A DNA stretch of 64,000 nucleotides. It comes from Heptranchias perlo. Its lineage: Eukaryota. This document shows positions 31,814 to 63,653 of the stretch, one piece after another; the stretch's first letter is position 1, and each line of letters begins with the position of its first letter. Both the position numbers and the translations under genes were made by a program. The notes beneath the pieces were generated by a model, which was not told the origin of the DNA, searched no databases, and saw only the letters and a list, made by a program, of their open reading frames with translations. The stretch is taken from assembly GCF_035084215.1 (NCBI RefSeq), contig NC_090338.1, positions 15,314,001-15,378,000 of the forward strand, given 5' to 3'.

Positions 31814-31819
31814 TTTATT
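31814..31819 (-). promoter_or_regulatory. Candidate polyadenylation signal (AATAAA) of the Ig receptor gene
   Basis: tttatt on the plus strand about 270 nt past the stop codon; position is plausible but unverified. Confidence 0.45.
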
Positions 31820-32085
31820 TTCCATAATGTAGCAGTTTTTTTTACATAGCATCTGCAGAAGCCCGGAAAGGATTGTTGAAACTATATCAAGAGAAGTATT
31901 TCTATTGCAGGTTATGTTTGTAAGTTATGTTCATACTTGAAAAAAGTGATGCAATGATTATGTTCCATCAGAGCAGCTGCACAGGAAGACAGTTAAATAT
32001 CGGTTCTTCGGTAATGATATCAATTCCCCAAAATGTTATATTCCACATATCTAACTCCAAGCTCTTCCTGTCTATCCTGTGCAGC

Positions 32086-32157
32086 TTATTTAAATTTTGC
32101 TTGTGCTATTTGTGCATAGATAACAGATGAATCAGCTTCCTTTGAAGGAGTCAGGTT
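32086..32157 (-). CDS. Terminal coding exon [23 protein letters not shown] (ITIM/ITSM-like VIYAQI)
   Basis: ttctctcttgcag|AAC...AAATAA, phase 0, after a 140-bp intron. Confidence 0.85.
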   Translation of the reverse strand, partial: NLTPSKEADSSVIYAQIAQAKFK

Positions 32158-35100
32158 CTGCAAGAGAGAAATTAACCATTTATAATAATGTGAACTATTA
32201 CTGCATCTCTTTACATCAGATAACAACTTTACAAATTTGTTGCGGATATTAATATTGTAGGACGTGTGATTTCACCAATATGAATCTATATACTTACAGT
32301 ATCTGAAGATTGTTGATTGCCTTGTGTACCATGTCTGGACCCTGTGATAATTGCAAACACCACAATTAAAGGATAACACTGACAAAAAAAACTGACAATT
32401 GGCACACAAATATTCTCAACTTACTGCATTTCATCGTACAGCCAATGGATCAGCAAGACATTGATTGACAGTGAACCCAGTTTTCATCTGTATAACCCAG
32501 ATCCACACTAAGCACTGCATTTGCACAGGGAGCCATTGGGACGGTCATAAATGAACTAAGCTCCTGAAAAGACTCTGCAGAGTTTGAGAATTTCAGTGCC
32601 TTTTCAGCTTCAGATACCTGCTTTCATATAGAAAGCATAGAAATTACAGCACAGCAAGAGGTCATTTGGTCCATTGAATCGAGGCCGATGTTAACTGTTC
32701 ATCCGCAGCTTTCTATTCCAATCCCACTAATCTTTTATATGCCTCGTGTATTTTTAGATGATTGTAGTTTACAATTTATGCTCTATTAGATGTCGGGGTT
32801 GATTCTCCTGTTTCCTCCTTGCCCGGGTGGAGCAGACTCAAAATGGGATCTGCTTGTCCAGGCCTCAGGGTGCCTTAATTTAGTTGGGCAGGTCATTAGC
32901 ATGGTCTGATTAAACCCTGGTTGCAGGCCCACTTCCTAGAAGAGCTGTTCACTGGGAAACAGACAGAAAAAGAACCACAGCTGCAGGCCTGAGAAGACCT
33001 GAAACTGTGGGACAGGCCATCGGTCTCGGGGCCTTCTGGCTGTTGACCAGCAGTCAGTGGCTTAGTTCAAGCTTTCATGCCTGAAGATTGTTGGGAGATT
33101 GCAAGAGATAATGAACACTTACCTTTACGGCCTTGCTTGCCTATCCGTCTGGTCCCCTCAGACCCGAGGGGCTCCCAGGCACACGGCCCACTGTCAGCTC
33201 ATTCAGGTGCTGTTGGAAGTGATTGCTCTTCGGCTGAAACCACAGCAATGGGAGGGTGGAGAAAGTGGGAAATGCTCCTCCAGCCTTATTTCCATTGAAG
33301 CATGGGGACAACATAAAAGGAGCAGAGGTCCCATATTACAGATCACCACCCCTTTTTCCTACCATTAAGGTCCAGGGAATAAGTGTTTCCTAGCAACTGA
33401 TAGGAAAATCAGCCTTACTTATATCAACTTGGGAAGAATTGTCATAGTGCCTTTCACATCCTCAGGACATTTCAAAGCAAATTAAACACTTTTAATGTTT
33501 AGTTACTGTTTTAGGCAATGCGCCTCCAACAATACAACACTCCCTGAGCCTAGATTGTAGCAAGTAGGGTGTGAACCCATGACCTTCTCTCTCAGAGGTG
33601 GGAGTGCTACCCCTGAGCCAAGCTGGCAATCAGAAGGCTGAAACAAGTTTCTTTCTACACCACATGTTAAATTTTACATGGAAACATAGAAACATAGAAA
33701 ATAGGAGCAAGATCAGGCCATTCGGCCCTTCGGGTCTGCTCCGCCATTCGAAATGATCATGGCTGATCGTCTTACTCAGTACCCTGTTCCTACTTTTTCC
33801 CCATATCCCTTGATCCCTTTAGCATTAAGAAATATATCTATCTCGTTCTTGAATACATCTAATGACTTGGCCTCCACTGCCTTCTGTGGTAGAGAATTCC
33901 ACAGGTTCACCACCCTCTGAGTGAAGAAATTTCTCCTCATCTCGGTTCTAAATGGCATACCCCGTATCCTGAGACTGTGACACCTGGTTCTGGACACCTC
34001 AGCCATCGGGAACATCCTCCCTGCATCTAGTCTGTCTAGTCCTGCTAGAATTTTATATGTTTCGATGAGATCACCTCTCATTCTTCTAAAGTCTAGTGAA
34101 TATAGCCAAGTCTACCCAATCTCTCCTCATACGTCAGTCCTGCCTTCCCAGGAATCAGTCTGGTAAACATTTGTTGCACTCCCTCCATGGCAAGGACATC
34201 CTTCCTCAGATAAGGAGACCAAAACTGCACACAATACTCCAGATGTGGTCTCACCAAGGCCCTGTATAACTTCAGTAAGACATCCCTGCTCCTGTACTCA
34301 AATCCTCTTGCAATGAAGGCCAACATACCATTCGCTTTCCTAACTGCTTGCTGCACCTGAATGCTCGCTTTCAGCGACTGGTGTACAAGGACACCCAGTT
34401 CTCGTTGTACCTCCCCTTTTCCCAATCTATCACCATTCAGATAATAATCTGCCTTTCTGTTTTTACAACCAAAGTGGATAACCTCACATTTATCCACGAT
34501 ATACTGCATCTGCCATGTTCTTGCCCACTCAACCAACTTGTCTAAATCACATTGGAGCCTCTTTGCATCCTTCTCACAGCTCACATGTGTCATCTGCAAA
34601 CTTGGAAATGTTACATTTAGTTCCCTCATCCAAATCATTGATATATATTGTGAATAGCTGGGGCCCAAGCACTGATCCCTGCGGCACCCCACTAGTCACT
34701 GCCTGCCAACCGGAAAGAGACCCGTTTATTCCTACTCTCTGTTTCCTGTCTGTCAACCAATTCTCAATCCATGCCAGTATATTCCCCCCAATCCCATGTG
34801 CTTTAATTTTGCACACCAACCTCTTGTGTGGGAACTTATCAAAAGCCTTCTGAAAATCCAAATACACCACATCAACTGGTTCTTCCCTATCTATTCTACT
34901 AGTTACATCCTCAAAAAACTTCAGTAGATTTGTTAAGCATGATTTCTCTTTCATAAAGCCATGCTGACTTTGTCCAATCCCGTTAATGCCCTCCAAGTGT
35001 TCTGTTATCACATGGAGGCCATTAACGGGATTGGTCAAAGTCAGCATGGGTTTATGAAAGGGAAATCATTTTAAGTTCAGATGTGATATGATTCAAGAAT

Positions 35101-38100
35101 GTCAGATGTTTTCCTCTTACTATGCTTCCATATTGCTAATAACTTCAATCTTCAGTTCAAGATAATCACAATAAAGTGGTTTTCTTTCACCACAATATTT
35201 CTAAAAGAAGTTCCAATTGGAAATATACTACTGATTTGATCTACAAGACCATCTACAGGATGCACTGCAGCAACTCGCCAAGGCATCTGCATCAGCACCT
35301 CCCAAACCCGTGACCTCTACCACCTCGAAGATCAAGGGCAGCAGGCGCATGGGAACACCCCCACCTGCACGTTCCCCTCCAAGTCACACACCATACTGAC
35401 TTGAAAATATATCGCTGTTCCTTCATTGTCGCTGGGTCACAATCCTTGAACTCCCTATCTAACAGCACTGTGGGAGAACCTTCACCACATGGACTGCAGC
35501 GGTTCAAGAAGCCAGCTCACCACCACCTTCTCAAAGGCAATTAGGGATGGGCAATAAATGCTGGCCTTGCCAGCGATGCCCACATCCCATGATTGAATGA
35601 ATAAAAAAAGGTACCACGTTTTATCGTGTGTGCAGGAAATTGCACTGGTCATAAGGGTCTTGCACCATTTCAGTATTTTTCAGGATATGGATGACCCTGG
35701 TCAGGGCCACATTTATTTCCCACCCCTAGTTACCCTAAGAAGGTAGTGGATGTTCTTCTTGAAGCAATTGTACACTTCGGAGAGCAGTAAGAGTTAATCA
35801 CATAGTGTGGATTAGAGTCCCATTTAAGCCAGAATGGGAGGTGCCTTTCCCTGAAGGACTTTAGTAAACCCAGTTACCTCAATTTCCCTGGTGCTAACCT
35901 ACAAATTAAGAGATTTATTAGTTTCAATTTCACAACATACCATGGTAAGCTTGGAACTCATAACTTTCAGGTTGCTAGTCCAATACCACAGTCACCACAA
36001 TACCGTGTCTGGCTGTTGAGGTACTTTAATATTTGTTGTTTCTAGTTCTTCAGCCTCAGTGCAGTTCCTACTGGGCATTGGCCAACAGCACAATACTTTC
36101 TCTAATTCAAAATTGATTGCCGATCTCACAGAGAGGCACAGGACAACTGGTGTGGCAAATGGAAAAATGGCACGCTGGTGCATCAGCGGGTGCTCTTCTG
36201 AGGTTGGTGGTGAGGCACTTTTTCAGGGCAGAGTATGAGGAGCTTTACTCTGTGTTTGACTGCGCTGTACCTGCCCTAGGAATGTCTGATGCTGACATTA
36301 GGAGCATAATTTTAGAATGGCAACAGGATCTCAGCAGGGGGGGGGGGTCAATGTGCACGTTGGAAGCCTGGAAAAAAATTGCCTAACTTTTTGCACCCGA
36401 TTGTGACTTAATTGAAGGCCCTTAATGTGGCTTTATGATCTTATTGAATGGCGGAGCAGACTCGAGGAGCCATATGGCCTATTATTTCTTATGTTCTTAT
36501 GTAGGTGCGGATGCTTCATGAGTGCACGGGACCTCAGCCATCAGTAAACCCTCTGTGTTGAGCGATGTTGTGCAGGAGCAACAAACGATTATTATTCTAC
36601 ACACTCTCGGTCATGCGTACTGAAGGGCTCCCCCAGATCGATCCAGGCATCTGAAGCACATCTTGAGCAGTCCTGTGGCTTGTTCAATGACAGAGCTGGT
36701 GGTGATGTGGCTGTGGTTGTACCGCTGCTATGCCTTGCTGGTGGGATTTCTCAGAGGTGTCATGTGCCACGTCTGCAGCGGGTATTCCATGTCTCCAAGG
36801 AGCCAGCCCTTAAGTCTGTTTTGTGCATGGAAGGGGCCAGAATGTTGGATTCGTGCAGAATGAAGGAATCACGGCAGCTGCCAGGGAATTTGGCACACTC
36901 CTGCAGAAACCTCCTCCAGTGGTCGCAAACCAGCTGCGCATTGATGGAGTGATATCCCTTTTGGTTGATGAACAGTCCTGGCTCATGTGCAGGTCCTCGG
37001 ATTGCTACGCGTGTGCAATTAATTGTGCCCTGTACCCATGGGAAGCCAGTCAGAGAGTGGAAACTCACTGCCCTCTCAGTCTGGCTGATGTCATCGCAGG
37101 GGAATGCCCTGGCAAACAAGCCATCCGTGACCTGTCGTATACACTTATGTGCAGATGACTGAGAGAGAGACCCCGGCAATGTTACTGGTGGCATCCTGGA
37201 AGGATCCGGAGGCAAAGAAATTGAGGGAAGTGGTGACTGTAACTACGATGGGCAATGCGTGGCCACTAGGCCCAGCCGGGAGCAGATCTGCATGAAGGAG
37301 CCTGCAGATATCGACAACCAATTAGCAACTCAATCTGAGCCTTCGTCGGCACCGCTCCTCAGAGAGGTCCAGGAAGCTCAGTCTCTGTCTGTACACCCTC
37401 TCACTTGGGTTGTGCCTCCTGCAACCTCTGCCCCTCCGTTGGTTCCCTCTCTGCTCTTCTGCAGGTCCTTGTGGTGCACCTCTATCTTGTGGAGCTGCAA
37501 GTCCCAGAATTGCTGCCATGCCTGTCATGGATGGTGATGTGCCTCCTCCTCAGATGTACGGCAGAATAAACCCATTGCGCCCCTCACCCCCAACATCCTG
37601 ATGGTGTCAGTTTGAGGGGGTCCAAAATGAAGGTAAATATGTGTGAACACAAGAATTCTGAGTGTGAACCAAGAAATCTCAGTGCAAACACAAAGAACTC
37701 CCAGTCAAAGGTTTGTCTGAGAGAACTGATTGCCCTGCTGCAAAAACTCACCTTTTATTCTCATTTGTCAATCGCTGGTTTAAAGGTCTAAATGGCTGCC
37801 GGCTGCAACTCGCCTCTGTTTCCATGGAGTCTGTCAGATGCCACGGGAAACACATTGAAGCAGAGTTAAAATCGTTACCCTGCCTCAATCCACAGAAAAT
37901 GAAACACTTTAACTACTTTAAGTATCTTAATTGATGGTTTAAATATCGGTCCGCTGGGCTATGGGTCCTGAGGCTATGGGCCCCGACAACATCCCGGCTA
38001 TAGTGCTGACGACTTGTCCTCAAGAACCAGTCGCGCCTCTAGCCAAACTGTTCCAGTACAGCTACAACACTGGCATCTACCTGACAATGTGGAAAATTGC

Positions 38101-41100
38101 CCAGGTATGTCCTGTCCACAAAAAGCAGGACAAATTCAATCCGGCCAATTACCGCCCCATCAGTCTACTCTCAATCATCAGTAAAGTGATGGGAGGTGTC
38201 ATCGACAGTGCTGCCAAGTGGCACTTACTCACCAATAACCTGCTTACCAATGCTCAGTTTGGGTTCCGCCATGACCATTTGGCTCCAGACCTCATTACAG
38301 CCTTGGTCCAAACATGGACAAAAGAGCTGAATTTCACAGGTGAGGTGAGAGTGACTGCCTTTGACATCAAGGCAGTATTTGACCGAGTGTGGCACCAAGG
38401 AGCCCTAGTAAAATTGAAGTCAATAGGAATCAGGGGGAAAACTCTACAGGGGCTGGAATCATACCTAGCACAAAGGAAGATGGTAGTGGTTGTTGGAGGC
38501 CAATCATCTCAGCCCCAGGACATTGCTGCAGGAGTTCCTCAGGGCAGTGTCCTAGGCCCAACCATCTTCAGCTGCTTCATCAATGACCTTCCCTCCATCA
38601 TAAGGTCAGAAATGGGGATGCTCGCTGATGATTGCACAATGTTCAGTTCCATTCGGAACCCCTCAGATAATGAAGCAGTTTGTGCCCGCATACAACAAGA
38701 CCTGGACAACATCCAGGCTTGGGCTGATATGTGGCAAGTAACATTCACGCCAGACAAGTGCCAGGCAATGACATTCTCCAACAAGAGAGTGTCCAACCAC
38801 TTCCCTTGACATTCAACAGCATTACCATCGTCAAATCCCCCACCATCAACATCCTGGGGGTCACCATTGACCAGAAACTTAACTAGACCAGCCACATAAA
38901 TACTGTGGCTACAAGAGCAGGTCAGAGGCTGGGTACTCACCTCCTGACTCCCCAAAGCCTTTCCACCATCAACAAGGCACAAGTCAGGAGTGTGATGGAA
39001 TACTCTCCACTTGCCTGGATGAGTGCAGCTCCAACAACACTCAAGAAGCTCAACACCAGGACAAAGTAACCCGCCTGATTGGCACCCCTTCCACCAACCT
39101 AAACATTCACTCTCTTCACCACTGGCACACCGTGGCTGCAGTGTGTACCTTCCACAGGATGCCCTGCAGCAACTCACCAAGGCTTCTTCGACAGCACCTC
39201 CCAAACCCGCGACCTCCATCACCTAGAAGGACAAGAGCAGCGGGCACATGGGAACAACACTACCTGCACGTTCCCCTTCAAGTCACCCACCATCCCGACT
39301 TGGAAATATATCGCCGTTCCTTCATCGTCGCTGGGTCAAAATCCTGGAACTCCCTGCCTAACAGCACTGTGGGAGAACCTTCACTACACGGACTGCAGCG
39401 GTTCAAGAAGGCAGCTCACCACCACCTCCTCAAGGGCAATTAGTAATTGGCAATAAATGCTGACCTTGCCAATGATGCCCAGATCCCATGAACGAATAAA
39501 AAAAAATTGCCAGAAGGAATTCTGGCTTCCTGAAGCGCGTGCATCCAGATGCGTCTGGGTCGAACTCGAAAGTTGGTTGCCTGGAGCCAGGATTTATTCC
39601 TGCTCCGAAAAATATTGATTTGCTCTGCCCCCCACCCCCGTCCCCAACCCACCCGATCTTGGGGGCTAAAATCATGCCCTAGCATGATTAAGAATGAAGA
39701 CAAGCGATTTCAACGCTGCCTCAGCGTGTTTCCCGCGCTGTGTGAAACACGTCATAGTGAACGAGTCGTGTTTCAGCCAGCAGCCATTTGGACATTTAAA
39801 TGCCTGTTTGACAGATGGGGATAAAAGGTGAGTTATTGCAGTCGGGCACTCAGTTCTCTCAGACAAACTTTAGGCTGGAAGATCTTTGTGTTTAGACTGA
39901 AAATTCTTGGTTTCCACTCAGAATTGTTCTGTTTACACATATTTACCTCACCAGTTTTATTACCCAGCATTATCATTCCTCACCTTGATGAACACAAAAA
40001 TGAAAAATATAATAACAATGAAAAAAATTGCAATACCAAGCTTCATTACCTGGTGCTTTTTTCCGAAAAGCGACAGATGCGTAATGAATATCTTCTCTTT
40101 CTGTGTCTGCAGAGAATAAGAAAGAAATAAAGAGTTTGCATCTCTATATAGAGTTCCTTAACATAATCCAATGCACTTTCAATAATGCAGTACTCCCCTT
40201 GAAGTGTCACTCTGGAGTATGTGCTCAAGTCCTGAAGTGAGGCTTGAACACACAACATTCTGTCTCTGAAGTGACGGTGCTACCAAGTGAGCCAAGTTGA
40301 CTCATGAATTAGAGCATCAACATCACAGATCAGTTGCTGCAGATTTACTAAACAATGTCAATTAAAAACATAGCTCGCTGATCCGATTATCTTTTCCAAT
40401 TTTCTTCTCTTTTCTCTCACCTCTCTTGACTCTCACTCGGTTATGGTTCCACAAGTACTGACAGTCCTCCAGTATATAACTCAAATGTTCTTCATGTGTG
40501 AGCCTGGATATTAAGGGCTCGATTTTAAAACGGAACTGCGGGAATGTTGGGGGCGGGGGTGGGGGCGAAGAAAAACACGATTTCCGGGAGCGAGGGAGAA
40601 ATCCCAGCTCCAACATGCCTAATAAGGTGCACGACCCAGAGTCATCTGGGTGTGTGCACCAATCCCGAACCCGGAAGTCCCTCCGGCAATTAAAGCCGAG
40701 GTATTTGAAGTACTTGAAATGTACATGAATCTAATTAAGAATGAAGACAAGCGATTTCAACGCTGCCTCAGCGTGTTTCCCGCGCTGTGTGAAACACGTC
40801 ATAGTGAACGAGTCGTGTTTCAGCCGGCAGCCATTTGGACATTTAAATGCCTGTTTGACAGATGGGGATAAAAGGTGAGTTATTGCAGTCGGGCACTCAG
40901 TTCTCTCAGACAAACTTTAGGCTGGAAGATCTTTGTGTTTAGACTGAAAATTCTTGGTTTCCACTCAGAATTGTTCTGTTTACACATATTTACCTCACCA
41001 GTTTTATTACCCAGCATTATCATTCCTCACCTTGATGAACACAAAAATGAAAAATATAATAACAATGAAAAAAATTGCAATACCAAGCTTCATTACCTGG

Positions 41101-44100
41101 TGCTTTTTTCCGAAAAGCGACAGATGCGTAATGAATATCTTCTCTTTCTGTGTCTGCAGAGAATAAGATAGAAATAAAGAGTTTGCATCTCTATATAGAG
41201 TTCCTTAACATAATCCAATGCACTTAACATCCAATGAATTACTTTTAAAATGGAAGTACTGTTGTCAGGTAAACAAACACAGAATTCAAGGTTCCAAAAG
41301 CATTAAATAAGATAACAACTCGTTAACTTCTTGTGGTGGTCTTGGTTGAGGGAAGAATATAAATCAGGACAACTCCCTGCTCTCCAATTATACAATGATA
41401 TTTTTAACATGCACCTAAACAGGTCTCAACTGAAAGACGGCACTTTCAATAATGCAGTACTCCCCTTGAAGTGTCACTCTAGAGTATGTGCTCAAGTCCT
41501 GAAGTGAGGCTTGAACACACAACATTCTGTCTCTGAAGTGACGGTGCTACCAAGTGAGCCAAGTTGACTCATGAATTAGAGCATCAACATCACAGATCAG
41601 TTGCTGCAGATTTACTAAACAATGTCAATTAAAAACATAGCTCGCTGATCCGATTATCTTTTCCAATTTCCTTCTCTTTTCTCTCACCTCTCTTGACTCT
41701 CACTCGGTTATGGTTCCACAAGTACTGACAGTCCTCCAGTATATAACTCAAATGTTCTTCATGTGTGAGCCTGGATATTAAGGGCTCGATTTTAAAACGG
41801 AACTGCGGGAATGTTGGGGGCGGGGGTGGGGGCGAAGAAAATCACGATTTCCAGGAGCGAGGGAGAAATCCCAGCTCCAACATGCCTAATTGGTGCACAC
41901 ACCCAGAGTCATCTGGGTGTGTGCACCAATCCTGAACCCGGAAGTCCCTCCGGCAATTAAAGCCGAGGTATTTGAAGTACTTGAAATGTACATGAATCTA
42001 ATTAAGAATGAAGACAAGCGATTTCAACGCTGCCTCAGCGTGTTTCCCGCGCTGTGTGAAACACGTCATAGTGAACGAGTCGTGTTTCAGCCGGCAGCCA
42101 TTTGGACATTTAAATGCCTGTTTGACAGATGGGGATAAAAGGTGAGTTATTGCAGTCGGGCACTCAGTTCTCTCAGACAAACTTTAGGCTGGAAGATCTT
42201 TGTGTTTAGACTGAAAATTCTTGGTTTCCACTCAGAATTGTTCTGTTTACACATATTTACCAACTTTTTGGACCCCTCAAACTGACACCATCAGGATGGG
42301 GGGCCGTGATGGCTGCATTCACCAGTACACCCGAGGACGAGCAACATCACCATCCTCACCAGGCACGGTGTGCACTTCCGCCACTTGCAGTTCCACAACA
42401 CAGTGCTGCGTCACAAGGACCCGCACAAGACCACAGAGGGGAACAACAGAGGGAGCGACATTGCAGGAGACACTACCCTCGTCAGAGGGTCTACAGACTG
42501 AGGCTCAGATTCCTGGACCTCTCTGAGGAGCAGTGCATACAGAGGCTGAGAGTGAGTCGCCAGGTGGTCGCAGACATCTGCAGCCTCCTTCATGCCGAGC
42601 TGCTCCCGGCTGGGCCTGGTGGCATCTCATTACCCATCGCAGTTAAACTGATCACTGCCCTTAACTTCTTCGCCTCCGGATCATTCCAGGGTGCCACCGG
42701 TGGTATCGCTGGGGTTTCTCAGTCATCTGCACACAAGTGTTTAAATGTTACCTTGCATTTGCTGTATTTCATTAGCATTTGAATAAAGCTGAGATGCATC
42801 TTCTCTACTTTCCCTTGGCTGCAGAGGTTTCTGTCTTTGATTTTCCAAACCTGTTCATACAGAGGTCACCTATTAAGATGCATTCAACTTTCCTCATAAC
42901 TTTCACACATTCTAATAAACAAACTCAGTTTTAAAATGGTCCATTAGCACAGATATTTTTTTCAAGTATGAAAGACATTGTGACAAGATATTATGGATAT
43001 CTCTGTATACACTAGATACAGACTTCGCGAGGCATTGCTGACCAACTTATTTACTTGTTGTTGAAGATTGTGGATTCAAGCCCCAGTTTAGGACATGAGC
43101 ACATAATCGAGGCTGATACTTTAGTGCAATACTGAGGGAGTGCTGCACTGTCAGAGGTGAATGGGATATTAAACCGAGACTCTGTCTGCCTGTTCAGTTG
43201 GATGTAAAGCATCAAAGTGCACAGAGTGCTTCCAGTGTCCTGGCCAAAATTTCTCCGTCAGCCAACACCACCAAAATACAGACCAAGTGATCATTCATCT
43301 CATTTGCTGTTGTGGGAGCTTCATTAGTTCAAATTGATTGCTATGTTTGCCTAGATAACAGCAGTAACTACACTTCAAAAGTAATTTGTGAAATGCTGTA
43401 GGACATCTTGAGGACATGATAGTGCCTTGCAGGACTAGTGATCCAGAGGCTTGGACTAATAATCCAGTAGAACGTGAGTTCAAATCCCACCATGGCAGTT
43501 TGAGAATTTGAATTCAGTTTAAAAAGAAAATCTAAAAAGAAATAGCTGGTATCAGTAAAAGTGGCCATGAAGCTATCGGATATCAGTTAAAGGCCTGTTC
43601 ACTAGTGTCCTTCAGAGAAGGAAACCTGCCTTCTTTAGCCGGTCTGGCCTACATGTGACTCCAGTCCTGCACCAATGTGGTTGACTCTTAACTGGCCTCT
43701 AAAGTGGTCTAGCAAGTCACTCATTTGTATTATAGGCAACTAGGGATGGGCAATAAATGCCGGTCTTGCCAGCGACCCCCACATCCTGAGCATTTTTTAA
43801 AAATGTGATGCTGAATAAATGGAAGCTCTCTCCTTTACTTCACATGTGATCACATGTCTTATTTTCCTTCCCCAATTTTCCCCGATTATCGGGGTACAGT
43901 TCCATGGGCAATGGCAGACTACTGCTACCTCATGCAAATGGCCATGTGGGTATGGACGGTGTGCATAGTTGGATTACTCATCTGTAGACACCAGCACATT
44001 TGAGTCTAATTGTGTCCTCATTAAATGTTATTATACTTGCACATCTAACAATCAGAGGCACTTCTCTTCCCGAGGAGGGCAGGAGATGGGAGAAACTAAT

Positions 44101-47100: not shown

Positions 47101-50100
47101 CTACGTTAAAGGCGCTATATAAATGCAAATTGTTGTTGTTGTTGTTGATTTTTGACCAATTGCATAGCCTAGTATAGAACTCACATCATTCTAGCAGTTC
47201 AGGAACCAATGCCTTTCTAGAATGTTTGACACGTAGAAAACAAACACATCTATTTATCTAATCCTAGTGGATTATATCATTTAATTTTAAACAAAGATAT
47301 AATTGTCATTCCTAATTTTTGGAATCATGTGCCACATTCACATTTTCTTACATGGATGAAACCTGAAATTAGTTGCAGCAATTTACAAATCTTACCTGCT
47401 GCCTTGAACTTTCTTAAACACAGCACCACTACCAGGATAATGATGAGGAGAAGAGCCAGACTCCCAAAAATAACAACATTGGTATGTTTAAAAGTGTAAC
47501 CATCTGTCAGAAGAATAAAAATAGATTTTCCATTTAGTTTACAGGTTAATTTTTTTTAAGCTCCCCTAATGACCCATTGGATAAAATTGCTGTCTGATTT
47601 ACCACCAAACTGTACAGACCAGAAGGTCTTAGGTTTAATTCCTGATCCAAGTTAACTGACCTCACTCAGGATCGTCGGAGTGCTACAATTATCCTCATTG
47701 CTCGTCAGTTAATGACAGGTAAAAAAATCACACAGGGCTCTCATTCCCAGTTACAATCTAGTGATTCCTTCTGGAAAAGAGATGTGTGCAAATGACTGGT
47801 AAGAAAAGGATGCGATTCAGCTGTGATGCTTCCACTGTACAATAGGTCAACGATACTCATTGTCTAGGCTTATACTTGAATAATTCCATTTGAATGAGAA
47901 CTCACTCAATGGGGTAGATCTTGACTTTGTGCGATAGTGTAAAACGGGTGGAAATAAAAATGGGGAGAGATGTAAAACAGGCTGCCGACTCGTTATCACC
48001 CGTGTTTTTTCTTTTTTTATTTGTTCATGGGATGTCGTCGTCGCTGGCGAGGCCAACATTTATTGCCCATCCCTAATTGCCCTTGAGAAGGTGGTGGTGA
48101 GTCGCCTTCTTGAACCGCTGCAGTCCGTGTGGTGAAGGTTCTTCCACAGTGCTGTTAGGAAGGGAGTTCCATGATTTTGACCCAGTGATGATGAAGGAAC
48201 AGCGGTATATTTCCAAGTTGGGATGGTGTGTGACTTGAAGGGGAACGTGCAGGTGGTGTTGTTCCCATGTGCCTGCTGCTCTTGTCCTTCTAGGTGGTAG
48301 AGGTCGTGGATTTGGGAGGTGCTGTCGAAGAAGCCTTGGCGAGTTGCTGCAGTGCATCCTGTGGATAGTACACACTGCAGCGAATGTGCGCCGGTGGTGA
48401 AGGGAGTGAATGTTTAGGGTGGTGGATGGGGTGCCAATCAAGCGGGCTGCTTTGTCCTGGATGGTGTTGAGCTTCTTGGGTGTTGTTGGAGCTGCACTCA
48501 TCCAGGCAAGTGGAGACTATTCCATCACACTCCTGACTTGTGCCTTGTAGATGGTAGAAAGGCTTTGGGGAGCCAGGAGGTGAGTCACTCGCCGCAGAAT
48601 ACTCAGCCTCTGACCTGCTCTGTTAGCCACAGTATTTATATGGCTGGTCCAGTTAAGTTTCTGGTCAATGGTAACCCCCAGGATGTTGATGGTGTGGGAT
48701 TCGGCGATGGTAATGCTGTTGAATGTCAAGGCAAGGTGGTTAGACTCTCTCTTGTTGGAGATGGTCATTGCCTGGCACTTGTCTGGAGCGAATGTTACTT
48801 GCCACTTATCAGCCCAAGCCTAGATGTTGCCAGGTCTTGCTGCATGCGGGCTCGGACTGCTTCATTATTTGAGGGGTTGTGAATGGAACTGAACACTGTG
48901 CAATCATTAGCGAACAGTCCCATTTCTGGCCTTATGATGGAGGGAAGGTCATTGATGAAGCAGCTGAAGATGGTTGGGCCTAGGACACTGCCCTGAGGAA
49001 CTCCTGCAGCAATGTCCTGGGACTGAGATGATTGGCCTCCAACAACCACTACCATCTTCCTTTGTGCTAGGTATGACTGCAGCCACTGGAGAGTTTTTCC
49101 CCTGATTCCCATTGACTTCAATTTTACTAGGGCTCCTTGGTGCCACACTCGGTCAAATGCTGCCTTGATGTCAAAGGCAGTCACTCTCACCTCACCTCTG
49201 GAATTCAGCTCTTTTGTCCATATTTGGACCAAGGCTGTAATGAGGCCTGGAGCCAAGTGGTCCTGGCGGAACCCAAACTGAGCATCGGTGAGCAGGTTAT
49301 TGGTGAATAAGTGCCGCTTGATAGCACTGTTGATGACACCTTCCATCACTTTGCTGATGATTGAGAGTAGACTGATGGGGCGGTAATTGGCTGGATTGAA
49401 TTTGTCCTGCTTTTTGTGGACAGGACATACCTGGGCAATTTTCCATATTGTCGGGTAGATGCCAGTGTTGTAGCTGTACTGGAACAGTTTGGCTAGAGAC
49501 GCAGCTAGTGCTGGAGCACAAGTCTTCAGCACTACAGCCGGGATGTTGTCGGGGCCCATAGCCTTTGTTTTATCCAGTGCACTCAGCCGTTTCTTAATAT
49601 CACGTGGAGTGAATCGATTTGGCTGAAGACTGGCTTCTGTGATGGTGGGGATATCGGGAGGAGGCCGAGATGGATCATCCACTCGGCACTTCTGGCTGAA
49701 GATGGTTGCAAATGCTTCAGCATTGTCTTTTGCACTCACGTTTTACACTGTTGCACAAAGTCAAGATCTATCCCAACATGGGAGGAGACGAGGAAAAAGG
49801 AGAAAACTGGCAGAGAATTAGCAACAAAAATTGGTACAGTATCTTTCTGGCCATAATATTTAGCAAAAATTAATCCTTGACAATACAACCTAAGTAATGA
49901 CACCACAACGCATATTAGAGCAACAAGACACTACCATGGAATGAGTTTGTGGTCATGATGTGCCACAAACTAAATGTCCAATCTCAGTCAGGGTTTCAGA
50001 AGGAGGTTGGAAAAGTATGGTGAGCGTTCCCCTGGGAGGGAGAAAAAATACAGCGACAACAACTCTCCTCATACTTTTCTCATGCACCTCCCTGTGGCAG

Positions 50101-53100: not shown

Positions 53101-56100
53101 GGATCCCATGAAATCTCATGGCATCAGGTCAAACATGGGCAAGGAAACCTCCTGCTAATTACCACCTACCGTCCTCCCTCAGCTGATGAATCAGTCCTCC
53201 TCCATGTTGAGCACCACTTGGAGGAAGCACTGAGAGTAGCACGGGCACAAAATGTACTCTGGGTGGGGGACTTCAATGTCCATCACCAAGAGTGGCTCAG
53301 TAGCACCACTACTGACCGAGTTGGCCGAGTCCTGAAGGACATAGCTGCCAGACTGGGCCTGCGGCAGGTGGTGAGCGAACCAATACGAGGGAAAAACTTA
53401 CTTGACCTTGTCCTCACCAATCTACCTGTCGCAAATGCATCTGTCCATGATAGTGTTGGTAGGAGTGACCACCGCACAGTCCTCGTGGAGACGAAGTCCC
53501 GTCCTCGCACTTAGGACACCATCCAACGTGTTGTGTGGCACTACCACCGTGCTAAATGGGATAGATTCAGAACAGATCTAGCAGCTCAAAACTGGGCATC
53601 CATGAGGCATTGTGGGCCATCAGCAGCAGCAGAATTGTATTCCAGCACAATCTGTAACCTCATGGCCCGGCATATTCCTCACTCTACCATTACCAACAAG
53701 CCAGGGGATCAACCCTGGTTCAATGAGGAGTGTAGAAGAGCATGCCAGGAGCAGCACCAGGCGTATCTAAAAATGAGGTGCCAACCTGGTGAAGCTACAA
53801 CTCAGGACTACATGCATGCGAAACAGCGGAAGCAACATGCTATAGACAGAGCTGAGCGATTCCACAACCAACGGATCAGATCAAAGCTCTGCAGTCCTGC
53901 CACATCCAGTCATGAATGGTGGTGGACAATTAAACAACTAACGGGAGGAGGAGGCTCTGCAAACATCCCCATCCTCAATGATGGCGGACTCCAGCACGTG
54001 AGTGCAAAAGACAAGGCTGAAGCGTTTGCAACCATCTTCAGCCAGAAGTGCCGAGTGGATGATTCATCTCAGCCTCCTCCATTAACCAGAAACTTAACTG
54101 GACCAGCCATATAAATACTGTGGCTACGAGAGCAGGTCAGAGGCTGGGTATTCTGCGGCGAGTGACTCACCTCCTGACTCCCCAAAGCCTTTCCACCATC
54201 TACAAGGCACAAGTCAGGAGTGTGATGGAATACTCTCCACTTGCTTGGATGAGTGCAGCTCCAACAACACTCAAGAAGCTCAACACCATCCAAGATAAAG
54301 CAGCCCGCTTGATTGGCACCCCATCCACCACCCTAAACATTCACTCCCTTCGCCATCGGCGCACAATGGCTGCAGTGTGTACCATCCACAGGATGCACTG
54401 CAGCAACTCGCCAAGGCTTCTTCGACAGCACCTCCCAAACCCATGACCTCTACCACCTAGAAGGACAAGAGCAGCAGGCACATGGGAAAAACACCACCTG
54501 TACGTTCCCCTCCAAGTCACACACCATGCCGACTTGGAAATATATCGCCGTTCCTTCATCGTCGCTGGGTCAAAATCCTGGAACTCCCTTCCTAACAGCA
54601 CAGTGGGAGAACCGTCACCACACGGACTGCAGCAGTTCAAGAAGGCGGCTCACCACCACCTTCTCAAGGGCAATTAGGGATGGGCAATAAATGCTGGCCT
54701 AGCCAGCGATGTCCACATCCCATGAACGAATAAAAAAAAGAAGAGTTTCTCTGAGCCTGAAGAGTGGAGAGCTTCAATTGCAATGTTTGCAGCTGGGAAT
54801 TACATTTTGCTGTGATTTTTTTGAACATTCTGCCTCAGCATTCTGATTGATTTTGTTCAGAAAATGCTCCATTTTGCTGTCAAAAAGAAATGCTTACCCT
54901 GGCTCAGTGTGTTTACCGAGACCGTAGCTGAGACATACAGACCAGGAAGTTTCCACGCTCGATCTCAGGCAGTTCTGAGTTATCTCAGGGTAAATTTTCT
55001 GAGGTTCTGCACCACTGGTAGAGCCTCACACACAGGATATAAAGGAGGGGTTACATCTGGCAAAAAGAACAATAGGTGACAAGAATATTCTATCGAGAAT
55101 ATAAGTATAAAGAGCAAAACCTGAGTCACTTACCACTGGGCTCCAGATAGTACGGGACTAAAACCAGGGGCCTGTTTTGATAAAACAAAACACATATCCA
55201 GTTCTCTCTGCCTCTGTCAACTTTCTGAATATTCAGTCTCAATGATTTCTCTTCCCCATTCCATCCATTCAATGTTTTATTTCCTACAGTTTTGCCATCA
55301 CTATTGATCCAAACAAGTCTGATTGATTCAGTGACATCAGAGACAGAGCAGGTCAGGGTAACGTTGTGTCCCTCAGTCACTGCATCAGATGGTTCAGCTG
55401 TGACTGTGTAAACAACAAAATCATTTAGATTTTAAACAATGACTTTATCACTGAAAACAACAAAATTCTGTCTCCTACCTTTAACTGTGATTAGTTTAAT
55501 GATCACATATTTAGTTGATCCCAGAGAACATGTGTAAACTCCGGCATCTTCAAACAGTACAGGGACAATCCTCACACTGAAGTTCTTGCCATTAAAATTT
55601 GCCATTGTGGGAACCAGTCTTTTCCCAAAGTAGGTCCTGTTTACATTGATGAGCTCAGATTTTGAAGCAGATGCTATTTTTTTCTCCTGATTCTGAAGAT
55701 GATGTGACCTCCAGGTCCATTCAGCAGTATCGTAAGAATGATCATAATTATTATAATAATCATAGCAAATCAGGCGGAGTTCACTGTGACCTGTGCCTGA
55801 TCGATAAAGTGTGTAATTCTCACCATCTAAATCTGCAATAGAAAGACAGAGAACAAAGTGTGAGAATTTTACAGTTACTGAGATACAGAGAAAAGCCAGA
55901 ATAATTACCGCCCACAATTATATAAAACTAATTGGGTTTTGATCATCATAACTGCATTTGATAACATTTTTTCAAAGCTATGAACTGTTTAAGAATGGTA
56001 AAGCTTGGATGAATTCAATTCACAAAAGGCAGTGGAAATTTATAAAAATGAAACTTTTTTGTTTTTTAATATGATGAGATTTTTGTGCCATGGATGACAC

Positions 56101-59100: not shown

Positions 59101-62100
59101 AGATAACTGAACTTACATTGGGTCATGGAAAAATCAGCTTTGATAAGGACGGATCCACTTTCCTGCACTTCACACACGTACAACTCCTTATCCTCTACTG
59201 CAACATGTCTGACCATCAGATAATCTGTGTTCTTTATTCGGATCTGATCAGTGTTCCTCCTGTTCTGCTGAGATGAGTCCCTTTGTTTCCATTGAAGACT
59301 GACTGTATCTGAGAGTTTGGAGATGGTGCAGCTGAGTATAACGTCACTGCCCACCACAGCACTCTGTGGACTTGACTCAACTGTGAAAAACAGATATATA
59401 ATATGTAGTACAGTTTACTGTAAGTAGTGGCATGCTAGAACAATTAAGTTCCAACTGGCATTAAGATGTACCCATTATCAGCATTTGTACCTTGTTTCAT
59501 TAAAGGGTCAGACCAGATTACACACAAATGCATCTCAGCAGTAGAATAACACAGTGGGGCCGAAGATTCTCAGTCCTGCTCCACCAGCAGAAGTGTGGCA
59601 GAGCGGGGCCGGTGACCTTTACTCCTGATCCTGCCCGAGTATCCGGGGTCAGGTCAAGGTTACACAGTTTGGATGGCATTTGTGGGATGCCCACACCACA
59701 ATGGACAGGTGATGGAAACTCATCAGAGGAGGGTGTGCTGGAAATGTATCCCCTGTATTATCGGACTTGAAGTAGGTTCAAAGCCTACTGTGTTCTCAAT
59801 GTGCCGAGCACACTTCAGTAAGACCTCCCAACACATGCACTGGGAATCTGTGCACAAAATCCACATCAAAGGTCATTACAGCCCCAGAAATTATTTAAAT
59901 TATGGGGCTCCCAAAATGCATCTGGACACGGCTCTAATTATTGTGCATCGAAAATGGAATGGCACTTCAGGAGAGGCTTGTTCTAAAAATGCCCACCCTA
60001 ACTTTCGGTCCCACCTACAACATGACAAGTAATAATCAAATCTTGAACAGGGACTTTTTTCCAAGACCAGGCCAAATAAATAGTGGCAACAATTGGTTGC
60101 CGACGTCCAACGCTCTGGTGCCCGACCCATGTGTCATTCCCCGTGTACCATGCACTGTGTACCATGAGCAGCGTTAAAAATTGTAAATGAGTTGACTTTC
60201 TATTATGGTCAACTCATTCTGGTTCATTTGGGGTCTACACTTCAGGAGCAATGGTCCAGGGCGAGTACAGTCAGGATCATATTTTCGTCTCTGTGACACT
60301 TCATGATTGGATTATATTTTGTATCAACTTCATTTGACAGTGACCTGAGCCTCATTTAGATGTTAAACACATGAACCAACCACAATATGTCACTATTTAG
60401 TGATATTCTTAGTTGGCAGAAGTTAATTTTTTAGAGAGCACATCAGTGTACAGACCATAATACTCTCTGGTGGACAGATTTCCTCACTTTGCTATTTCTG
60501 GTGAAGTTATCAAAAAGTCTGTAATCATGTTGACCATTTCAGGAGAAATAATGAACAAATCTTTCCCCTGGTTGTTTTAATGAGAGATGCACGCTGCAGT
60601 GGGTGATATAAATCTCACATGATCCTGGCAATCTCTAATCTTTACAGATGAAATTAGTTACGGAGAATCATATTCTTGAACCTTTTCTAGTCTTTATCCC
60701 ACTCACATTTGACCCCAAATATTTCATACTGTTTCAGGATTTTATTTCTCGACCATTCCTGAGTCAAGATGAACAATCCCGCAAATTCAAACGTGGAATT
60801 TCTAATTCTCAGATTAATGGTACCACGATCCAGCTGTATCTTCGAGTACAAGTCGCTGTTTCTAAAGTGATCGCTCCATTGTACTTTCCACCAGCCCGTA
60901 TTAGTTTTGTAAAAAGTACCCATCTCCTGGATTGGTTGCCCTGAGTGTGGTTTCCATTCCCAGACAACAGGGTCATTTCCAGGATTGTCTGGTCCTTTTA
61001 ATGAAACGTCATCTCTCTCATCCAAAAAATAAATATGATTTGGGTTTCCTGTTAGAAAGAATAACAATGTAAACATTTTAATATCAAATCAAAACTCTTT
61101 AATCCCATGTTTGGAAAAATTAATATTGGACTTTGTTTTGTTACAGTCACTTTTTTATATTCAATGGTTCAGCAATGACACAGACACACCCCTGTGAAGA
61201 GCTGTCTGTCTGGAATAATCAGGCCTAATCCAATGATACTTTAGGACATTAGAGGGTAAATTTATGCCACTGCACTCTGACCTTGTGGGCTGGTGGTATC
61301 CAATTTCACAATATGTATTTCCAGCATTTACCGGGAGTGCGGAAGGGGAATCGTTGCTCCCATATTGTGAAGAAATTTGGAATAACATCACAATAATCAG
61401 TATTTTCCTAAAATTGAATACGATACTGATGCAATCATATCACTTCAGAATCAAAAATCAAGTCAGTGATCTCCAAAAGTGGTCTCCTCTCCTCTTGTGC
61501 AATGCACAGTAAGTTGTTGCTTCTCCTGGACCACCGGTGACCAGGCTACCCACAGGAGCACCTATAACAAAGGGAGGCAGGATTTCCCACATTACCATAA
61601 TCTGGCTGTAGGTCAGCGTGACGGACTCTGTCTTCCCCTACCGCAAACACCAGGGAATTTCCTGAGGCCAGCCTAATTTCCATAATTATGGCGACTCCTT
61701 GCAGGGTTCGTGCTCTGATCCGAGGAACCCACGTGGGAGAGGGAGGAAGATGATTGCTGCAGGTCTCGAGTGCTTTCAGCAGCAGATCAGGACTGACTAC
61801 CTGTGAGGCAGCTGAAGAGGAGGGGCAACTTTTGAAAATTTACAAATTTGGCTGTGTGATTGATCACACTTGCTTCAGAAAGATCTTTGAAACTTAAATC
61901 CCCTCCTGCACACCATTGCAACACTGGATGCTGGGAACATGCTGCTGTTCTTTGTGTTCCAGCATTGCTATGGCGATAATGATGGAAAATGTAACATCTG
62001 ATAACACTTGGCCACTACAAATAATTTGAATAAAGCTGTCCATATTTGGGTCCACATATTCAGTGAAGTGACAACAATCTGCAGGGAGCAGGTCGCCGGA

Positions 62101-63653
62101 TCCCATTACAATCCCAAGAATCTGGCAAGTGTCCTTGATTGTGGAGTTGGTTAAATTCCATGTGGCAAAAAATAAAGGCTCTACATGTCCTTACGACTCC
62201 TGGTCTACAGGGGGCAGTATCGGGGTGGACAGGAGTGAGCCGAAGAGAAATTGGGGAAGGATACGTTTATGTCGGGACTCCACCCCATTTGTCCTTGACG
62301 GGGTTCCTTGAGGTGGGAGGAGATCAGGTGGTTCCTGCTTCCCGACCTCCTCTTGTCTAAAAACACACCGTGACAAAGATAAACCAACTCTTGGAACCTG
62401 ACTTACAGCCTCTTTCCACCAGGTGCTTCGCCTTAGCTGTGAAAGATGACAACAACAACTTGCTTTTATATCCTGCTTTTCATGTAATAAAACTGCCCAA
62501 GTTGCTTCACAGGAGCGTAATCAAACAAAATTTGACACCGAGCCACATAAGGAGAAATTAGAACAGGTGACCAAGAGCATGATCACAGGGGTAGGTTTCA
62601 AGGAGCATCTTAAGGAAAAGAGCGGTAGAGAGGTGGAGAGGCTTAGGAAGGGAATTCCAGATCTTAGGGACTAGGCGGCTGGAGGCACAGCCACCAATGG
62701 TGGAGAGATTGAAATCCGGGATGCGCAAGAGGGCAGAATTGGAGGACCGCTGAGATCTCGGAGGGCTGTAGGGCTGGAGGAGGTTACAGAGATAGGGAGG
62801 TAACAAATGTCGCTGTGAAAGTGAGAAAGGCACTTAATGTTTGTGCATTCAGATACTTCGAGGGGACCTCTGATGACATTAGTTACATCATTCAGTCAGC
62901 AGTTAATCACTACCGTTCCCTGGACTGCATTTCCACCTTCGAATCATCATCTATCCTTCATTTCAAGGGTAACAGTAAACAAATAAAATACTCATTATAA
63001 CCAAATATTTTATCTACAATTTCATAAGGGAAGTTATCTAAAGCAGTAAAACCCATATATCTGTGAGTCTTGATTAAATAGCAACTCACATCACAAATAC
63101 CAAAAATAAAATAAGAACATAAGAACATAAGAAATAGGACAGGAGTAGGCCAATCGGCCCCTCGAGCCTGCTCCGCCATTCAATAAGATCATGACTGATC
63201 TGATCCTAACCTCAAATCTAAATTCATGTCCAATTTCCTGCCCGCTCCCCGTAACCCCTAATTCCCTTTACTTCTAGGAAACTGTCTATTTCTGTTTTAA
63301 ATTTATTTAATGATGTAGAATTGGCTCCATGCACACTGTATTCACTGTAAAGTTTAAACACAAAGTTTGGACACTAAACCAGATGTAACCAGATGACAGA
63401 TGAATGGATAAACAGAGTGATAGATGGATCGGGGAAAGGAGTTGAAGAGCGAACTTACTCATCCTGTTTAAAGGAGCAGGAACATGAAAATAAAGACCTT
63501 ACTTGCTTTCTGAATAGTCAGTGCGTGATTTCATTAAACACGATGATAAAGTCAAACAATATGAATGTGATTGGTGGAAAAAAGGCACTTACTCTGAGTA
63601 AAAACAGACCGAAGTAGAAACACAAAGAAACTTAACATCAAACCAGCTGACAT
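32086..63653 (-). CDS. Multi-exon Ig-superfamily type I receptor, 4 Ig domains (V-C2-V-C2), CD4/LAG-3-like ectodomain layout with ITIM-bearing tail. Exons: 63653-63593, 61048-60707, 59380-59117, 55832-55479, 55403-55134, 47503-47396, 42850-42752, 41153-41097 and/or 40106-40050, 32341-32298, 32157-32086
   Basis: Manually assembled. Every exon is bounded by AG/GT; all introns are phase 1 except the last (phase 0); there is no internal stop. CDS is 1671 nt (556 aa) with one ITIM exon or 1728 nt (575 aa) with both. Family assignment comes from domain layout only. Confidence 0.88.
32298..32341 (-). CDS. Cytoplasmic exon [15 protein letters not shown]
   Basis: aattatcacag|GG...GATACT|gtaagt, 44 nt, phase 1-0. 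Confidence 0.8.
33680..35068 (-). mobile_element. 5'-truncated CR1-like LINE with short inverted duplication at its 5' end
   Basis: [16 protein letters not shown]; (aacataga)n tail; 35012-35068 is the near reverse complement of 34939-34994. Confidence 0.9.
35245..35609 (+). mobile_element. 3' end of the poly(A)-tailed CR1/L2-group LINE family
   Basis: Matches 39150-39507 and 54385-54739; ends aataaaaaaa. Confidence 0.85.
36500..39679 (-). mobile_element. PIF/Harbinger element with degenerate HARBI1-like DDE transposase (~36500-37540), interrupted by a LINE
   Basis: [50 protein letters not shown], then LGDMEYPL in another frame; first catalytic Asp reads Asn; terminus AAAATCATGCCC at 39679. 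Confidence 0.85.
37961..39507 (+). mobile_element. 5'-truncated poly(A)-tailed CR1/L2-group LINE (RT domain)
   Basis: [35 protein letters not shown]; A-tail at ~39497-39507. Confidence 0.92.
40050..40106 (-). CDS. Cytoplasmic ITIM exon, copy 2 (identical to 41097-41153)
   Basis: Same 57 nt and same splice sites, 1047 bp from copy 1. Confidence 0.75.
41097..41153 (-). CDS. Cytoplasmic ITIM exon, copy 1: [19 protein letters not shown]
   Basis: cttattctctgcag|AC...GCACCAG|gtaatg, 57 nt, phase 1-1. IHYASV fits ITIM (I/V/L/S)xYxx(L/V/I). Confidence 0.82.
41782..42740 (+). mobile_element. PIF/Harbinger 5' portion with transposase N-terminus, truncated; partial copies at 40514-40992 and 39687-39945
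   Basis: Starts GGGCTCGATTTT like 4904; ORF 42306-42782 [31 protein letters not shown]. Confidence 0.88.
42752..42850 (-). CDS. Cytoplasmic exon 1 [33 protein letters not shown]
   Basis: tatgaacag|GT...ATGCAAG|gtaaca, 99 nt, phase 1-1, open. Contains YSN. The polypyrimidine tract is weak. Confidence 0.75.
43070..43420 (+). mobile_element. Deu-domain SINE-like element (SacSINE1/AmnSINE1 type); a degraded minus-strand copy lies at ~41220-41570
   Basis: GCTGATACTTTAGTGCAATACTGAGGGAGTGCTGCACTGTCAGAGGTG resembles the Deu core as recalled; B-box-like GGATTCAAGCCC upstream. Confidence 0.6.
43430..43790 (+). mobile_element. SINE-like non-autonomous element sharing internal and 3' sequence with the poly(A) LINE family
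   Basis: B-box-like GAGTTCAAATCC (~43476); 43673-43730 matches 52683-52739; 3' AGGGATGGGCAATAAATGC..CCACATCC matches the LINE tail. Confidence 0.7.
44775..46170 (-). mobile_element. 5'-truncated CR1-like LINE
   Basis: [21 protein letters not shown]; (catagaat)n tail. Confidence 0.9.
46170..47146. mobile_element. Two L2-like 3' fragments in opposite orientation (46170-46850 -, 46855-47146 +)
   Basis: [41 protein letters not shown]; (ttg)n tail at 47130-47146. Confidence 0.8.
47396..47503 (-). CDS. Transmembrane exon [36 protein letters not shown]
   Basis: attcttctgacag|AT...GCAGCAG|gtaaga, 108 nt, phase 1-1. About 21 hydrophobic residues with no charged residue, then Cys and a basic stop-transfer RKFK. 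Not in the ORF track. Confidence 0.9.
47911..49774. mobile_element. MITE with ~40-bp TIRs split by a LINE insertion
   Basis: Left GGGGTAGATCTTGACTTTGTGCGATAGTGTAAAA; right TTTTACACTGTTGCACAAAGTCAAGATCTATCCC resumes at 49741. Confidence 0.8.
48004..49740 (-). mobile_element. 5'-truncated poly(A)-tailed CR1/L2-group LINE (RT + 3' end)
   Basis: ORF 48795-49739 with RT motifs (FADD reads FAND); T-run tail at ~48004-48022. Confidence 0.93.
50430..51620. mobile_element. Fragmented CR1-like (+, ~50430-50810) and L2-like (-, ~51040-51620) remnants
   Basis: Similarity to intact family members in this window; (atgatact)n and (aac)n tails. Confidence 0.7.
52683..54739 (+). mobile_element. Poly(A)-tailed CR1/L2-group LINE with 5' region, APE endonuclease and 3' end but RT deleted
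   Basis: [27 protein letters not shown]; junction at ~54080 joins pre-RT to post-RT sequence relative to 48004-49740. Confidence 0.9.
55134..55403 (-). CDS. Ig domain 4 exon (short C2-like, WxC in F strand)
   Basis: tttacacag|TC...CCCAGTG|gtaagt, 270 nt, phase 1-1, after a 75-bp intron. [21 protein letters not shown]. Confidence 0.93.
55479..55832 (-). CDS. Ig domain 3 exon (V-set)
   Basis: tctattgcag|AT...GTTAAAG|gtagga, 354 nt, phase 1-1. [29 protein letters not shown]. Confidence 0.93.
56210..57320 (-). mobile_element. L2-like LINE 3' portion with (aac)n tail
   Basis: [39 protein letters not shown]; (aac)n at ~56211-56237. Confidence 0.85.
57325..57830 (+). mobile_element. Internal fragment of the poly(A) LINE family
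   Basis: [23 protein letters not shown]. Confidence 0.85.
57830..58880 (-). mobile_element. Old, highly degraded CR1-like fragment
   Basis: Recognisable residual similarity to CR1 ORF2 3' half (ccaaaatgcattaccacacacttctc, gcatccaaagcaaattttga). Confidence 0.6.
59117..59380 (-). CDS. Ig domain 2 exon (short C2/I-like)
   Basis: gtttttcacag|TT...ACCCAAT|gtaagt, 264 nt, phase 1-1. [30 protein letters not shown]. Confidence 0.92.
60707..61048 (-). CDS. Ig domain 1 exon (V-like, no cysteines)
   Basis: ctttctaacag|GA...GTCAAAT|gtgagt, 342 nt, phase 1-1. DVSLKG (B strand), VVWEWK (C strand), [18 protein letters not shown] (E-F strands), YEIFGVK (G strand). Confidence 0.85.
62450..62800 (-). mobile_element. 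L2-like 3' fragment
   Basis: [16 protein letters not shown]; (aac)n tail. Confidence 0.8.
63115..63318 (-). mobile_element. CR1-like 3' tail, near-identical to 1410-1610
   Basis: Direct sequence match including (aacataag)n. Confidence 0.9.
63593..63653 (-). CDS. Leader exon (signal peptide) [20 protein letters not shown]
   Basis: Minus strand reads ttttctgcag|caaaATG...ACTCAGA|gtaagtg. Hydrophobic 20-aa leader ending in phase 1. The acceptor just upstream (exon start 63657) implies an additional 5'UTR exon, possibly beyond the window. Confidence 0.8.

Follow-up and report, generated by a model that had tools for sequence, protein, structure and literature searches.

A 64,000-nt stretch of the Heptranchias perlo genome (contig NC_090338.1, 15,314,001 to 15,378,000; hereafter the window, in which positions count from its first letter) contains a minus-strand gene for an immunoglobulin (Ig)-like receptor. 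One exon of this gene, which encodes an ITIM (immunoreceptor tyrosine-based inhibitory motif), occurs twice in tandem. This locus raises the question of whether the receptor has gained an inhibitory motif or whether the second copy stands in for one that was lost. A first-pass annotation of the DNA suggested a possible gain. Based on a comparison with the paralogs, we propose that the window gene has lost one ITIM exon that its intact paralogs carry, that it probably holds a real tandem copy of the next one, and that its protein, with a predicted three-ITIM tail at the spacing of these paralogs, likely acts as an ordinary inhibitory receptor that recruits SHP phosphatases. Judged from its sequence, the two-copy exon is likely a replacement of the lost ITIM exon, not the gain of a new motif.

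The doubled exon and its host gene

The two exon copies are identical at all 57 positions, and each is bordered by an acceptor ending in CTGCAG and a donor starting with GTAATG. Their splice sites differ in a single base, located in the pyrimidine tract, and an intron of 990 nt separates them. Adjacent, homologous, with intact splice sites and matching phase at both ends, they have the exon structure of a tandem symmetric exon duplication, and both coordinates of this phase 1-1 exon in the first-pass annotation proved correct. A direct comparison of the surrounding units of 1047 and 1267 bp likewise confirmed that they differ by a few substitutions and a 220-bp deletion flanked by microhomology: we counted seven isolated substitutions, one cluster (two substitutions and two one-base gaps) and the deletion. 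The divergence between the units is ∼0.8%, about one third of the divergence to the closest paralog in this region (49 mismatches per 1748 columns). At a divergence of ∼1%, identity over 57 of 57 exon positions is the expected outcome and gives no signal of selection. Taken together, these data support the earlier proposal of a recent, in-frame, transposon-associated exon duplication, which results in three motifs of ITIM consensus.

The host gene consists of 11 exons extending from 63653 to 32086. It encodes a signal peptide, four Ig-like domains (D1 to D4), one transmembrane (TM) helix and a tail made up of the five exons that follow the TM exon. Spliced with both copies, the exons of the window match all three RefSeq isoforms letter for letter. 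The full splice corresponds to XP_067852155.1, and omission of D4 or D1 gives XP_067852156.1 and XP_067852158.1; each isoform contains both copies of the ITIM exon and is titled “uncharacterized protein”. The tail motifs IHYASV (twice) and VIYAQI agree with the ITIM consensus S/I/V/LxYxxI/V/L, and the TM helix is uncharged. D1 (60707-61048), which contains no cysteine at all, and D4 are the two domains that RefSeq isoforms drop in frame.

Loss of the neighboring ITIM exon in the paralog cluster

We surveyed 646 kb of the contig including the window, with gaps of 60 kb, 30 kb and 4 kb left out. A search with D3 gave 13 matches, every one on this contig. Five copies in the cluster bear a tail, and these are the same five that were returned by a genome-wide DNA search. 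Three of them look intact: the window gene with four Ig domains, a gene at 15.64-15.71 Mb with eight and a gene at 15.89-15.94 Mb with twelve. The remaining two comprise one copy with an insertion in the TM exon and one tail that has no Ig exons upstream of it.

The closest paralog (15.69 Mb) carries only one unit and is 96.7% identical to the window over positions 41000-42739. The alignment breaks at window positions 39683/41000 and at 42736-42739, where an AGTG microhomology marks a deletion of 6,707 bp relative to this paralog. The deleted stretch includes a 78-nt phase 1-1 exon with the ITIM-consensus motif SDYASV. Three of the five tail copies have an exon of this SxYAxV type. Neither the window gene nor the tail-only remnant has it; in the latter, it was removed by a separate deletion of ∼1 kb (15843467-15843471 of the contig). 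Since a relative from elephant shark shows the motif DEYATL at the position of the lost exon, loss of the SDYASV exon represents the derived state. One annotated isoform of the closest paralog omits this exon.

A net gain of an ITIM, as read in the first-pass annotation, is therefore not supported. The statement that the tail has three ITIMs instead of two is correct relative to a single-copy version of the window gene, but not relative to the intact paralogs, which have three. With both copies included, the ITIM tyrosines of the window gene are residues 508, 527 and 566, compared with 864, 883 and 922 or 1337, 1356 and 1395 in the two intact paralogs, so that a spacing of 19 and then 39 residues is found in all three intact genes. 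This match arises because each of the three phase-1 tail exons has its tyrosine ten residues ahead of its end. At their 3′ ends, the exon that was lost and the one that was duplicated agree in 18 of 35 bases (mean after shuffling 9.2, p 0.00075, with the Tyr codon and the donor AG left out). On this alignment the two exons may be ancient duplicates, with the shared motif codons contributing to their similarity. For the first tail exon, homology to these ITIM exons was not supported (p 0.13 and 0.30).

The genes at 15.28-15.98 Mb represent an unnamed Ig receptor multigene cluster with 4-, 8- and 12-domain members, both ITIM-tailed and of a motif-less TM type, and this cluster is possibly of more interest than the exon duplication. 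It is bracketed by an inverted pair of distant four-domain paralogs (15282599-15292161 and 15971453-15982957), and another such paralog is located at 26.63 Mb. The TM exon of one paralog is interrupted by a palindromic repeat of ∼208 bp at 15460209-15460418 of the contig, and the corresponding RefSeq model omits the TM exon. The window gene itself has a chimeric appearance: D3 is 97% identical to that of a gene of the motif-less TM type at 15.59 Mb, whereas the tail introns align continuously with the eight-Ig gene at 15.69 Mb (window 55134-61048 versus 30661-48001).

Harbinger sequence at the breakpoints

PIF/Harbinger elements are characterized by terminal inverted repeats (TIRs), a TAA/TTA target site, a DDE_Tnp_4 transposase and a Myb-like open reading frame (ORF). 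The element next to the ITIM exon is truncated in the window. Its counterpart in the closest paralog measures 4,150 bp and has both TIRs, which are identical over 16 bp and flanked by TAA/TTA as in PIF/Harbinger. Another copy in the window (77% identical) matches DDE_Tnp_4, a Myb match in another copy stayed below the cutoff, and Pfam gave no match for the ORF piece of the breakpoint element itself (42210-42779). The element belongs to a high-copy family, the best other copies being 84-91% identical. Because it is common to the window and the paralog, it is older than the duplication.

A 261-bp piece of this element, here called h, is present three times (39687-39947, 40734-40994 and 42001-42261), and the first two copies flank the duplicated segment. 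The order in the paralog is flank, 15 bp, exon segment and Harbinger; in the window it is flank, h, TCACC, segment, h, TCACC, segment and h. The same filler TCACC at both junctions indicates that the junction was made once and copied afterwards. A nearby match to such a filler is a signature of templated repair, and the presence of CCTCACC about 30 nt from the junction suggests a templated insertion or repair event.

From this layout we infer insertion of h and a subsequent unequal exchange between h repeats as the simplest path. First, a repair event would have placed the 261-bp piece of the adjacent Harbinger element beyond the exon, at its far side. Unequal crossing-over of the two 261-bp repeats would next have doubled the exon, and the units would have diverged by ∼1% afterwards. 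An array of three units that was later shortened by a deletion also fits, but requires one event more.

The first-pass annotation had located the breakpoints inside the Harbinger 5′ end. This applies to h, which covers nucleotides 220-480 of the element, but not to position 41000, which is unique intron, nor to 39683, which is 4 nt beyond the TIR of another element. This closeness of the left junction to a TIR may or may not be chance. The transposon supplied sequence, but its ends do not coincide with the unit boundaries. We rejected a transposase-driven duplication, since the ends of h are 220 and 480 nt within the element and a TIR, belonging to the other element, is close to the left junction alone. 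The junctions look like repair and recombination within an old Harbinger element, not like transposition. The two Harbinger-type elements (36435-39679 and 41782-42739) flank the ITIM exon in opposite orientation, and the left one is split by a piece of a long interspersed nuclear element (37971-39504). All features are listed in Table 1.

Table 1. Position of the features described in the text within the window
Feature	Position	Strand	Details
ITIM exon copy a	41097..41153	-	57 nt, 19 aa; phase 1-1; first in transcript order
ITIM exon copy b	40050..40106	-	57 nt; phase 1-1; same sequence as copy a
Tandem unit 1	39687..40733		1047 bp; 5 derived substitutions and 220-bp deletion (polarized on closest paralog)
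Tandem unit 2	40734..42000		1267 bp; 2 derived substitutions and one derived cluster (polarized on closest paralog)
220-bp segment missing in unit 1	41220..41439		GCACTT microhomology at flanks
Piece h	42001..42261	+	261 bp; original place within Harbinger
Scar of 6,707-bp deletion	42736..42739		AGTG; 3,192 bp transposon and 3,515 bp intron lost relative to closest paralog
Harbinger-type DNA transposon, 5′ part	41782..42739	+	TIR at 41782; 5′ end duplicated at 40515-40994
Second, inverted Harbinger-type element, TIR and left junction	39668..39686	-	TIR 39668-39679; 15 bp of paralog absent here
Junction filler TCACC	40995..40999	+	again at 39948-39952; CCTCACC recurs at 41025
Signal-peptide exon	63593..63653	-	
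Ig-like domain D1	60707..61048	-	cysteine-free; no Pfam best stretch
Ig domain D2	59117..59380	-	
Ig domain D3	55479..55832	-	V-set
Ig domain D4	55134..55403	-	WxC motif
Transmembrane exon	47396..47503	-	helix without charged residue
First tail exon	42752..42850	-	QLYSNA (no ITIM); phase 1-1
Tail spacer exon	32298..32341	-	phase 1-0
Last coding exon	32086..32157	-	ITIM VIYAQI and stop

Predicted use of both copies and relatives of the receptor

We also examined sequencing runs for traces of both copies. Twelve runs were listed, all in the form of contigs, with a single sample of the best-matching organism accounting for eight; four of the twelve were compared with the one-unit stretch 40995-47600. 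In a DNA run, one contig pairs a C at 41645 with a T at 41670, a combination found once in the examined cluster (in unit 1), while another contig matches the 220-bp segment of unit 2 without differences. Sequence specific to each unit is thus present in the reads. In the putative RNA runs, the splice from TM to tail was seen in all three and the direct splice from tail to ITIM exon in two. In two of the three, the contig joining TM and tail is 231 nt long and ends 28 nt into the ITIM exon. According to a k=31 model, a break at 28 nt results from two copies or a retained intron and one at 27 nt from the extra exon of a paralog feeding in, whereas a single copy gives no break. One of the runs with the 28-nt break shows zero depth in the intron bin 41216-41436. 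The summed depth of the exon-holding bin amounts to 143, 187 and 193 units, compared with modeled values of 57 for one copy, 89 for a retained intron, 126-160 for paralog mixtures, 172 if half and 230 if all transcripts are double; by this model, it leans to two copies without deciding, and such depths call for caution. The RNA contigs favor an exon-to-exon junction only indirectly. Depth as a gauge of copy number was set aside, since the contigs expected to be one-copy and two-copy are alike in depth (7.5-12.6).

In the function that we propose, both copies would be spliced in, the tyrosines would be phosphorylated, and SHP-1 and SHP-2 would dock via their paired SH2 domains. A number of observations weigh against the proposed replacement. 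The four runs compared all come from one sample, which is possibly the source of the assembly, and the RNA label of three of them is a guess; no listed run is recorded as RNA. Unit-specific reads are also expected from two haplotypes, and no read spanning the array was found among the contigs compared. The 28-nt break is also compatible with a retained intron or with DNA in the run. The observed depth of 143-193 overlaps the paralog-mixture model (≤160) and falls below the all-double value, and a copy-to-copy splice junction was not among the 15 joints listed (258 others exist, and the stretch is swamped by repeats). Moreover, a gene with a single copy would retain the two ITIMs that are 39 residues apart, and just two strict ITIMs are present in many relatives, so the extra copy may be neutral. 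We therefore put forward compensation for the lost exon as a hypothesis. A far-reaching version of it, in which selection holds three ITIMs at fixed spacing throughout an undescribed family from sharks to teleosts, the phase-1 tail exons are interchangeable and the lost exon was restored by copying its neighbor, seems rather unlikely to us.

The duplication could also be real at the DNA level but a mere passenger, with transcripts that mostly contain one copy, a two-ITIM receptor and a neutral second copy. We regard this as unlikely. It would account for the unlisted copy-to-copy junction, the depth sums below the all-double model, an exon identity that needs no selection at ∼1% divergence and the frequent two-ITIM tails of the family; but the splice sites are the same except for one pyrimidine-tract base, none of the three RefSeq isoforms skips the copy, and the 28-nt break occurs in two of three runs, one of them without depth in the intron bin.

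Alternatively, assembly could have joined two haplotypes in tandem through the 261-bp repeat, if each contained this repeat and a single exon copy. Such joining could run through the flanking direct repeat, no contig compared contains a spanning read, and a difference of ∼1% is possible between alleles of an immune cluster, a nearby DNA contig having seven differences. However, this explanation is improbable given that the locus is free of N within 20 kb (the sole N run of the window is at 18767-18920) and part of a 74-Mb contig, that a genome-wide search did not find a stray copy, and that two copies per transcript are indicated both by the break in the RNA contigs and by the RefSeq models. 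The contig in question, at window 44022-44054, shows seven clustered differences absent from both the window and the assembled closest paralog and possibly represents another allele or an unassembled copy.

Also improbable, finally, is stronger inhibition than in the usual state, with splicing that tunes the tail between two and three ITIMs, as in the first-pass annotation: either copy of the symmetric exon could be skipped in frame, the closest paralog has its isoform without the SDYASV exon and no model matches the depth sums better than the half-and-half one (172), but both other intact paralogs also count three ITIMs and no skipping isoform of the window gene is annotated, the new copy being retained in all three.

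The probable replacement of one ITIM exon by a copy of the next gives matched tails of the same spacing, SDYASV-IHYASV-VIYAQI and IHYASV-IHYASV-VIYAQI, with which the part of ITIM number, identity or spacing in phosphatase recruitment could be examined. If true, the compensatory reading would be a natural experiment in compensatory exon turnover. The locus gives a base-resolution view of how exon loss and gain beside old transposons remodel the tail of an inhibitory receptor. Exon duplication as a process is well established, and RefSeq already contains the protein.

Siglec and LILR proteins are further inhibitory receptors with multiple ITIMs. The ITIMs of the window gene have Ala at pY+1, which, in the available text of PMC8631942, favors SHP1 in human T cells. 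That source also describes BTLA and PD-1, which resemble the window receptor in their tandem tyrosine motifs, Ala at pY+1 and disordered tail. They differ in spacing, about 25 residues instead of 19 and 39, and the window tail lacks an immunoreceptor tyrosine-based switch motif. According to the accessible part of PMC12151841, conservation of the SHP binding residues extends across the jawed vertebrates. As far as the text of PMC7078208 was available, activation of SHP-2 depends on the distance between two phosphotyrosines. The motifs of PD-1 and BTLA are 25 residues apart, and a 19-residue pair may be short.

Doubled motif modules recur among relatives. They are present in 11 of 69 retrieved tail-bearing proteins (gene models only, with isoforms counted separately), three of which are the window gene. 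The other eight come from five other elasmobranch species: sawshark, where two different modules are doubled, Narcine, Amblyraja, Mobula birostris and Rhinoraja. Those of Narcine and Amblyraja may go back to one shared event. LOC144599914 of the skate Rhinoraja longicauda (XP_078267305.1) resembles the window gene in that two tandem copies of this exon type (IHYGSI) are present in its predicted tail, but this gene model belongs to a separate lineage, and its copies differ at one residue while those of the window are identical. Given this recurrence, tail remodeling is common in the family, which makes the window case less surprising.

A profile search extended the set of four-domain relatives to sturgeons, bowfin, eel, tarpon and cyprinids. 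All 20 representatives that we looked up are described as uncharacterized, hypothetical or generic “Ig-like”, and one cluster member was automatically named CEACAM5-like. No paper on the receptor family or on the duplication event was found in the open text of PMC and bioRxiv. The locus points to an unnamed multigene family of Ig receptors in sharks, rays and bony fish, and relatives of the cluster range between elephant shark and teleosts.

Further papers on tandem exon duplication reportedly exist. The known cases, including the tandem duplication of symmetric coding exons (PMC9013439, as far as its text was available), share with ours the adjacent homologous exons, intact splice sites and preserved frame. 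In contrast to the mutually exclusive use described in the same portion of PMC9013439, the annotation includes both copies here, and the new copy offsets the loss of a neighboring exon.

The four-Ig ectodomain and the WxC motif of D4 are reminiscent of the CD4/LAG-3 family, as outlined in the accessible sections of PMC10768021. LAG-3 is among the best weak PDB matches (E 5.5e-4; 2e-6 by profile, behind PD-L1, CEA and MXRA8). However, the tail of the window receptor has several exons and classical ITIMs, its D1 is cysteine-free, its D2 lacks WxC (YVC, compared with WIC in D4), and the genes of its cluster have 4, 8 or 12 Ig domains. The LCK-binding motif Cx(C/H) of CD4 is absent, with no cysteine in the entire tail, as is the (F/Y)xxL(D/E) motif of LAG-3, whose tail is encoded by a single exon instead of five; we rejected membership in either group.

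The DICP family of ray-finned fish, in the available text of bioRxiv 10.1101/2021.06.11.448072, is similar in its gene clusters, paired-domain repeats, ITIM-bearing and motif-less forms and alternative splicing. The same text gives four conserved cysteines for each D1 and D2, of which no fewer than C23 and C104 are retained when the receptor has four domains. We rejected a DICP assignment, as D1 of the window receptor has no cysteine and thus lacks the canonical pair, D2 to D4 have two each and the extra DICP cysteines are absent. None of the named relatives retrieved carries a DICP annotation.

Apart from the receptor gene, window positions 12634-16150 contain nested direct and inverted repeats (95-96%) of a putative Penelope-like element with ORFs similar to reverse transcriptase and GIY-YIG.

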